Virus record (IMG/VR): IMGVR_UViG_2531839193_000017 | Length of the DNA: 17,262 bases | Source: a virus | Taxonomy: Duplodnaviria; Heunggongvirae; Uroviricota; Caudoviricetes | Direction: 5' to 3' (one strand) | Shown here: one piece after another, positions 1,638-2,095 of the stretch | Layout: every line of letters begins with the position of its first letter | Position numbering within the stretch: position 1 is the first letter of the stretch | The notes under the pieces: generated by a model | Database searches by the model: none | Seen by the model: only the letters and a program-made list of their open reading frames with translations | What the model was told of the DNA's origin: nothing | Made by a program: the position numbers and the translations under genes

Positions 1638-2095
1638 TTATTTCAGGCATTGCGTCCTGATGTATTCCTGCAGGTAGTTAACCTGCGCGGTTATCTTGTC
1701 GATTCCACTTCGGAGACGGTAATAATTGAGTTCAGCATCTGCTGTAAGTCCTGGGCTTTCTCCATCGCCCATGCCGCTGGCTCCGGTCGTTGACTTTGCA
1801 CAGGTGGCGGCGACTTGCAGCGCTTACGCCCAGCAGAAACATCAGCACGGAGACTTTCGATAGTCGCGTTAGCATCAGCAAGCTCCTTTATGTATCTTGC
1901 GTCGAGTTCTGCTACATCACGTTGACGCTTCCGCATGTCAGCGATGGTGGCGTTCGCCTTCTCCAGTTCACTGGCCTTGTTATCGCGCTGCTCTTTGTAG
2001 GCGATTGCGTTATCACGGTAATGATTAACAGCCAATGACAGGCAGACGATGATGCAGATAACCAGAGCGGAGATAATCGCGGTTACTCTGCTCAT
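1638..2095 (-). pseudogene. rzpD: i-spanin Rz (RzpD-like) disrupted by a 1-nt frameshift near 1820
   Basis: ATG overlaps the lysozyme stop (ATGA at 2092-2095). The first 92 codons ([20 protein letters not shown]... transmembrane helix plus coiled coil) are in one frame. The Rz-like C-terminus ([60 protein letters not shown]) is in another frame ending at 1638-1640. Confidence 0.7.
1691..1875 (-). pseudogene. rzoD: o-spanin Rz1 lipoprotein (RzoD-like) embedded in Rz; signal peptide and mature domain now in different frames
   Basis: A lipoprotein-type signal peptide ([19 protein letters not shown]) is in one frame from the ATG at 1873-1875. The Pro-rich mature part ([42 protein letters not shown]) is in the Rz N-terminal frame. 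Restoring one base near 1820 would recreate a VSAC lipobox. Confidence 0.6.

Follow-up and report, generated by a model that had tools for sequence, protein, structure and literature searches.

The Rz/Rz1 spanin genes of this prophage are deposited as a single chimeric reading frame created by a one-base frameshift, and our analysis suggests, at a probability of roughly 0.7, that the frameshift is a base-calling or assembly error lying over an ordinary DLP12-like embedded spanin pair. The window, by which we mean the whole stretch of 17,262 nucleotides that was analysed, is made up of positions 1–17262 of the 19,738-base contig AKNC01000070.1, which belongs to draft assembly GCA_000268045.1 of Shigella sonnei 3226-85, a strain placed in S. 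sonnei lineage II in a published comparison (PMC5447701). The fetched contig locus was 100% identical to the window over 12,095 bases, with the gene start at record position 2095. The prophage is DLP12-like and lambdoid and is riddled with insertion sequences, including three IS1 copies, an IS21-family element and IS2. Its surroundings comprise rusA, a Q antiterminator and an nmpC/ompC-like porin gene, followed by IS1, essD, rrrD, Rz/Rz1, a terminator, a KilA-N gene and an IS2 copy at the contig end.

The original prediction held that a one-base frameshift joins the N-terminus of Rz in frame to the mature domain of Rz1, leaving the Rz C-terminus open in a second frame and the Rz1 signal peptide in a third, and the reading frames, the alignment with relatives and the Pfam matches all agree with this description (Table 1). 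Within the chimera, 92 Rz residues (MSRV...GRKR), comprising the transmembrane domain (TMD) and the first coiled coil, are followed by 42 mature Rz1 residues (CKSPPPVQ...ESTR) and a stop codon at 1693-1691; the mechanical ORF list begins the same frame four codons earlier, at GTG 2107, which yields 138 aa. At the junction, positions 1823-1817 of the minus strand read GCGCTGC in the window and GCGCCTGC in every relative. The frame of the Rz C-terminus ends at 1640-1638, while the frame that begins with the Rz1 signal peptide reads VSAA... after the deletion, so that the lipobox Cys is lost and the frame runs on out of register to 1732. Set against the E. coli DLP12-type Rz, the gene has a single substitution, at window position 1878 (Rz codon 73), where ACA has become ATA (Thr73Ile); it is common to the standard Shigella allele, and is thus a lineage marker and not a sign of decay.

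Table 1. Positions of the lysis-cassette features and shortened base runs in the window, with the observation on which each assignment rests.
Feature	Position	Strand	Basis or remark
Stem-loop and T-run after the Rz stop	1584..1605	-	Sequence; the homologous mEp235 position is annotated as a rho-independent terminator
Rz C-terminal 60 codons and stop (LQVAATCAK...IRTQCLK, stop)	1638..1820	-	Open, out of frame with the Rz start
Chimeric ORF, 134 aa from ATG 2095	1691..2095	-	Frame reading; Pfam; protein EIQ40113.1
Mature Rz1 coding part (...ESTR, stop)	1691..1819	-	Now translated as the chimera’s C-terminal part
Rz1 start and signal peptide	1732..1875	-	Third frame, ATG 1875-1873; 47-aa ORF
One-base deletion site	1820..1820		Single plus-strand G versus GG in all relatives
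rrrD 3′ part	2092..2521	-	129-aa stump, Phage_lysozyme
IS2 inserted in rrrD	2522..3851	-	5-bp GTTAA duplication at 2517-2521 and 3852-3856
rrrD 5′ part	3852..3924	-	Comparison with the intact locus
Holin gene essD, first gene of the lysis cassette	3924..4139	-	71 aa, Phage_holin_2_1
Short A-run	5472..5477		One base less than 5/5 comparators reaching there; 10 bp before the porin ATG (5487)
Short T-run	12904..12908		One base less than 4/4 Shigella and 4/4 E. coli; cscB frameshift near codon 23
Short A-run	13454..13459		A7 to A6, one base less than 4/4 E. coli; second cscB frameshift

Putting the C back in silico gave an Rz of 152 aa and an Rz1 of 61 aa whose residues 17–20 form a VSAC lipobox, precisely the outcome that had been predicted for one added base near 1820. 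Alignment with an E. coli DLP12-type prophage, phage mEp235 and a Stx2a phage showed exactly one gap (CGCCTG to CGCTG), and the Rz region was 99.6% identical in DNA to annotated Rz genes, which argues that its identity as Rz is not a chance resemblance. The single-frame arrangement was the normal state in none of the related prophages examined, and the prediction therefore withstood that comparison. The Pfam matches followed the same lines: the chimera covered positions 1–69 of 126 in Phage_lysis and 1–41 of 41 in Rz1, while the repaired Rz covered positions 1–125 of 126 in Phage_lysis (E = 1.9e-38) and the repaired Rz1 again covered 1–41 of 41 in Rz1.

We compared both versions of the locus with the features by which spanins are recognized. 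As deposited, the locus does not encode the i-spanin combination of an N-terminal transmembrane helix and a full periplasmic coiled coil with a full-length PF03245 match. Nor does it encode the signal peptide ending in a lipobox that marks an o-spanin, since the relevant frame reads ...GVSAAS without a Cys; against the consensus [LVI][ASTVI][GAS]C (PMC6139136), a lipobox is present once the base is restored. The o-spanin gene lies wholly within the i-spanin gene in the +1 frame, with Rz1 (1875 to 1693-1691) inside Rz (2095-1638), a layout likewise annotated in Stx2a_F349, and Rz/Rz1 occupy the last place in the holin-endolysin-spanin cassette. Judged at the level of sequence, the repaired locus possesses every feature of a lambda/DLP12-type embedded two-component spanin, and the deposited locus lacks the two that depend on intact frames.

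We propose that under-calling reduced a CC pair to a single C in the draft assembly of strain 3226-85. The true locus would encode a 152-aa inner-membrane i-spanin, Rz, with a 61-aa outer-membrane lipoprotein o-spanin, Rz1, nested in its +1 frame, and the pair would stand last in the holin-endolysin-spanin cassette with a terminator after it; the terminator annotation was carried over to the window from phage mEp235 through the alignment. Because Rz1 is read in the +1 register relative to Rz, the loss of any one base from the 186-nt stretch that the two genes share gives an Rz::Rz1 ORF terminated by the Rz1 stop codon. A base lost at 1820 would in this way carry translation from the Rz frame over into that of Rz1, and the chimera would be a by-product of the nested architecture, with no designed fusion behind it.

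The distribution of the allele among sequenced genomes is what an artefact would produce, as it is restricted to one assembly and the extra base is present in near-identical genomes. The exact chimera was found once among ~15 billion proteins, as a one-member cluster from one contig (EIQ40113.1, ‘bacteriophage lysis family protein [Shigella sonnei 3226-85]’), a count that could hide further carriers, since frameshifted genes flagged as pseudogenes get no deposited protein. The repaired 152-aa Rz, including Ile73, was an exact match to the standard Shigella allele, which is present in at least 1000 contigs and 1836 index blocks under names such as ‘lysis protein [Shigella sonnei]’ and ‘MULTISPECIES: lysis protein [Shigella]’, and the exact repaired 61-aa Rz1 was present in 524 contigs. 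Complete genomes including CP104423.1, CP032523.1 and CP029794.1 carry the same prophage with an intact Rz (152 aa) and an intact endolysin (165 aa), and across positions 1–2521 the window differs from the closest of them, CP032523.1, by this one gap and zero mismatches. With a 71-mer query centred on the deletion, the deletion allele was found in none of 5426 complete E. coli genomes, in which the best matches were 98.6% identical, equivalent to one gap. None was found among phage records, and an exact scan for a 34-mer of the deletion allele (CTGCTGGGCGTAAGCGCTGCAAGTCGCCGCCACC) gave zero matches in genome_contigs and metagenome_contigs, collections that hold few S. sonnei isolates. The first Shigella comparators had been picked via the intact Rz protein, which makes the statement that the difference at 1820 is private partly circular. 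Resampling via the neighbouring KilA-N gene, which is independent of Rz, returned an intact Rz (145–157 aa) in 10/10 distinct places, and among the fetched loci the deletion motif was confined to the two that are the window’s own contig, the 19 others being intact.

The remainder of the contig provides a second line of evidence. We listed the private differences over the 12.1 kb that are collinear with four complete genomes, and found that those in unique DNA numbered three, all of them one-base deletions (1820 GG to G, 5477 A7 to A6, and 12908 T6 to T5), with 0 substitutions; two private substitutions were seen, both inside multi-copy IS1. The differences separating lineages in unique DNA, that is, those shared by 3/4 comparators, consisted of 7 substitutions and 1 indel, a spectrum distinct from the private one (Fisher one-sided p = 0.024). 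Further runs short by one base were observed at ~14098 (T-run), 14865 (A-run) and 15419 (G-run), and the IS2 copy inside rrrD likewise lacks single bases at two sites described below. The runs at 13459, ~14098 and 15419 were shorter than in all covering E. coli loci and the run at 14865 was shorter than in 3/5, with the qualification that to the right of 13.4 kb the comparators are E. coli only and some of the run-length differences there may be real. A look-up via a 114-aa prophage protein gave E. coli loci that were informative only for indel contexts and for recognizing cscB. Overall, the deletions are one-directional, remove single bases from runs and occur roughly once per 3 kb. One-directional loss from runs without substitutions, the pattern to be expected of an artefact, is the signature of base-run under-calling and is unlike the divergence among these genomes. 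The shortened A-run ahead of the porin gene is probably another under-call; if it were real, the spacing of the porin’s ribosome-binding region would be changed.

Some observations in this part of the contig concern the assembly and its rearrangements. The ‘lacY-like’ ORFs at ~12841-14086 (+) are the sucrose permease gene cscB, which is adjoined in the E. coli loci by cscK, cscA and cscR, and which in S. sonnei CP104423.1 is intact at 415 aa. Positions 12709–16274 are inverted relative to the E. coli csc-region loci and lie between inverted IS1 copies, and the 9-mer CTGCAAGCG occurs in inverted orientations at 12709-12717 and 17043-17051; the segment 12709–17051 thus reads as the footprint of an IS1-mediated inversion. 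At the other end (window positions 1–260), the contig starts inside the IS2 copy that in complete S. sonnei genomes lies downstream of an 85-aa gene, a break of the kind that repeats typically cause in draft assemblies.

Just upstream of Rz, the endolysin gene rrrD is split by a further IS2 copy that the original prediction had overlooked. This insertion is absent from every comparator genome examined. Flanked by a 5-bp GTTAA target duplication, it is a genuine transposition private to the strain, and it leaves the endolysin truly dead whatever the state of Rz. With the endolysin already split, even a real Rz frameshift would be a second hit in a dead lysis cassette. Around its orfA/orfB junction (3440-3500), this IS2 copy differs from the downstream IS2 copy of other genomes by one-base deletions at 3474 (GG to G) and at 3490 and by extra length in the T-run at 3444-3445. 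These changes truncate orfA at ...LLGKKR followed by a stop, which is odd for a recently transposed copy and fits low sequence quality at that place.

These observations bear on the reading that the deletion is real, private to 3226-85 or to a very narrow clade, and pseudogenising, with both spanin subunits out and the chimera a non-functional leftover, a reading that we consider rather unlikely. The insertion in rrrD, a genuine private lesion only 430 bp upstream, would have freed Rz/Rz1 from purifying selection, so that a true second hit is plausible, and the prophage as a whole is heavily decayed, as its three IS1 copies, IS21-family element and IS2 attest. Sporadic Rz::Rz1 frameshift chimeras with other junctions also occur in other genomes, including complete ones, and the site at 1820 is a run of only two bases, which is less typical for under-calling than the runs of 5–7 bases affected elsewhere. 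Against this, three private one-base deletions and 0 private substitutions in 12.1 kb contrast with the 7:1 ratio of substitutions to indels in the real spectrum. The divergence from CP032523.1 is too recent to have left any substitution in 12 kb, a neutral indel within such a time in a 460-bp gene is unlikely a priori, and cscB on the same contig is broken twice at base runs. On balance we favour under-calling. The sequences show the deletion itself, its uniqueness, the products of the repair and the error pattern of the contig, and from these we infer that the strain’s own genome has the base. The claim that a single indel breaks both spanin subunits is accordingly borne out for the deposited frames; as a statement about the biology of the strain it is probably wrong, because the contig carries private one-base run deletions without private substitutions in unique DNA and the allele is known from one draft assembly only. 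If the deletion were real, it would add one more pseudogene to a decaying Shigella prophage whose endolysin had already been destroyed by IS2, and neither an artefact nor a strain-private pseudogene is new biology.

We also considered whether the single-frame arrangement might be functional, either as a selected Rz-TMD::Rz1 fusion acting as a dominant-negative or single-chain spanin, or with programmed frameshifting recovering Rz and Rz1, and we judge this very improbable. The chimeric ORF is uninterrupted, begins at the natural Rz start and contains two recognizable Pfam domains, and the database has about twenty two-domain proteins like it. Yet those proteins are nearly all one-member clusters from 1–2 contigs with at least 8 different junctions, and none is inherited or conserved. 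The fusion has no lipobox Cys context, no signal peptide ahead of it and no distal Rz periplasmic domain, and because the lipobox context and distal domain are lost it should not be able to reach the outer membrane or anchor there. The endolysin upstream is disrupted in any case, and both spanin subunits are individually required for lysis (PMC6139136; for the genetics of spanin domains see PMC5295617). By its predicted domain content, the fusion should be mechanistically inert, retaining an inner-membrane anchor and the first coiled coil and having no outer-membrane anchor.

Specific forms of a functional product were examined and rejected. For programmed frameshifting, no slippery X XXY YYZ heptamer was present within 60 nt of the site, and the -1 slip at CGC-TGC that would be required to recover Rz offers no re-pairing. 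A conserved family of Rz::Rz1 fusions was discarded as well, the two-domain proteins among 5.8 billion clusters being nearly all singletons with differing junctions. The comparison thus gives no sign of selection for an Rz::Rz1 fusion. The least probable reading of all, and one to which we give next to no weight, is that the deletion is real and that an inner-membrane-anchored Rz(1-92)::Rz1(20-61) made from the late operon of the prophage acts on the spanins of superinfecting lambdoid phages, where it might, for example, titrate Rz through its Rz1 part and so have a dominant-negative effect.

The sporadic chimeras themselves (P0032-P0049 and P0052, from genomes such as E. coli DEC11C and E. 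coli 2-222-05_S3_C1) resemble the window in that an Rz N-terminus is continued in the Rz1 frame as far as the Rz1 stop, in many cases with both Pfam domains. They differ in their junctions, which are unlike that of the window, and nearly all are singletons. Examples, with a slash marking the junction, include ...AGR/SACKS, ...RADV/LLGVSACKS, ...LQVA/PPVQ, ...GDGES/DLQQ and ...TTG/SAAWAMEK. Six independent singletons (P0035-P0038, P0040 and P0043) have the common junction ...GMGDGES/DLQQML, and the window DNA matching it (GAAAGCCCAGGAC) has a CCC run, which may be a hot spot for recurrent one-base loss or miscalling. These cases call for caution, as in nested pairs like Rz/Rz1 a one-base deletion in the overlap presents gene callers with a tidy two-domain ‘fusion’; the trap holds for sequencing error and real mutation alike, and such fusions persist in databases.

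Among known systems, the unimolecular spanin gp11 of phage T1 is comparable to the chimera in having both membrane-targeting functions in one polypeptide; in gp11 the lipoylation signal is N-terminal and the TMD C-terminal (PMC6139136). In contrast, the chimera has its TMD at the N-terminus (residues ~4-23) and none at the C-terminus, and it lacks a usable lipobox: the single Cys that comes from Rz1 lies within the chain, at residue 93, and is not preceded by a signal peptide. We therefore rejected a gp11-type analogue, given the reversed topology and the absent lipobox.

The closest counterparts are DLP12-type cassettes. The E. coli cassette of the 14EC033 locus has the same order, with a Q antiterminator, porin, essD, rrrD and Rz (annotated as ‘lysis protein’), and the window differs from it in having one C less, Thr73Ile, IS2 inside rrrD and IS1 between the porin and the holin. 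In K-12, the DLP12 counterparts of Rz/Rz1 are rzpD/rzoD. The standard S. sonnei prophage allele is nearer still in its insertions, sharing the IS1, IS21-family and downstream IS2 elements of the window; it differs in having an intact Rz, an intact endolysin and an rrrD without IS2. The architectural reference is the Rz/Rz1 pair of phage lambda (PF03245 and PF06085), an embedded two-component spanin that stands last in the lysis cassette (PMC6139136, PMC5295617). The locus resembles it in the nesting of Rz1 within Rz in the +1 frame, in the N-terminal TMD of Rz and in the Rz1 lipobox; in contrast to lambda, neither frame of the window is complete as deposited, and both become complete with one added base.
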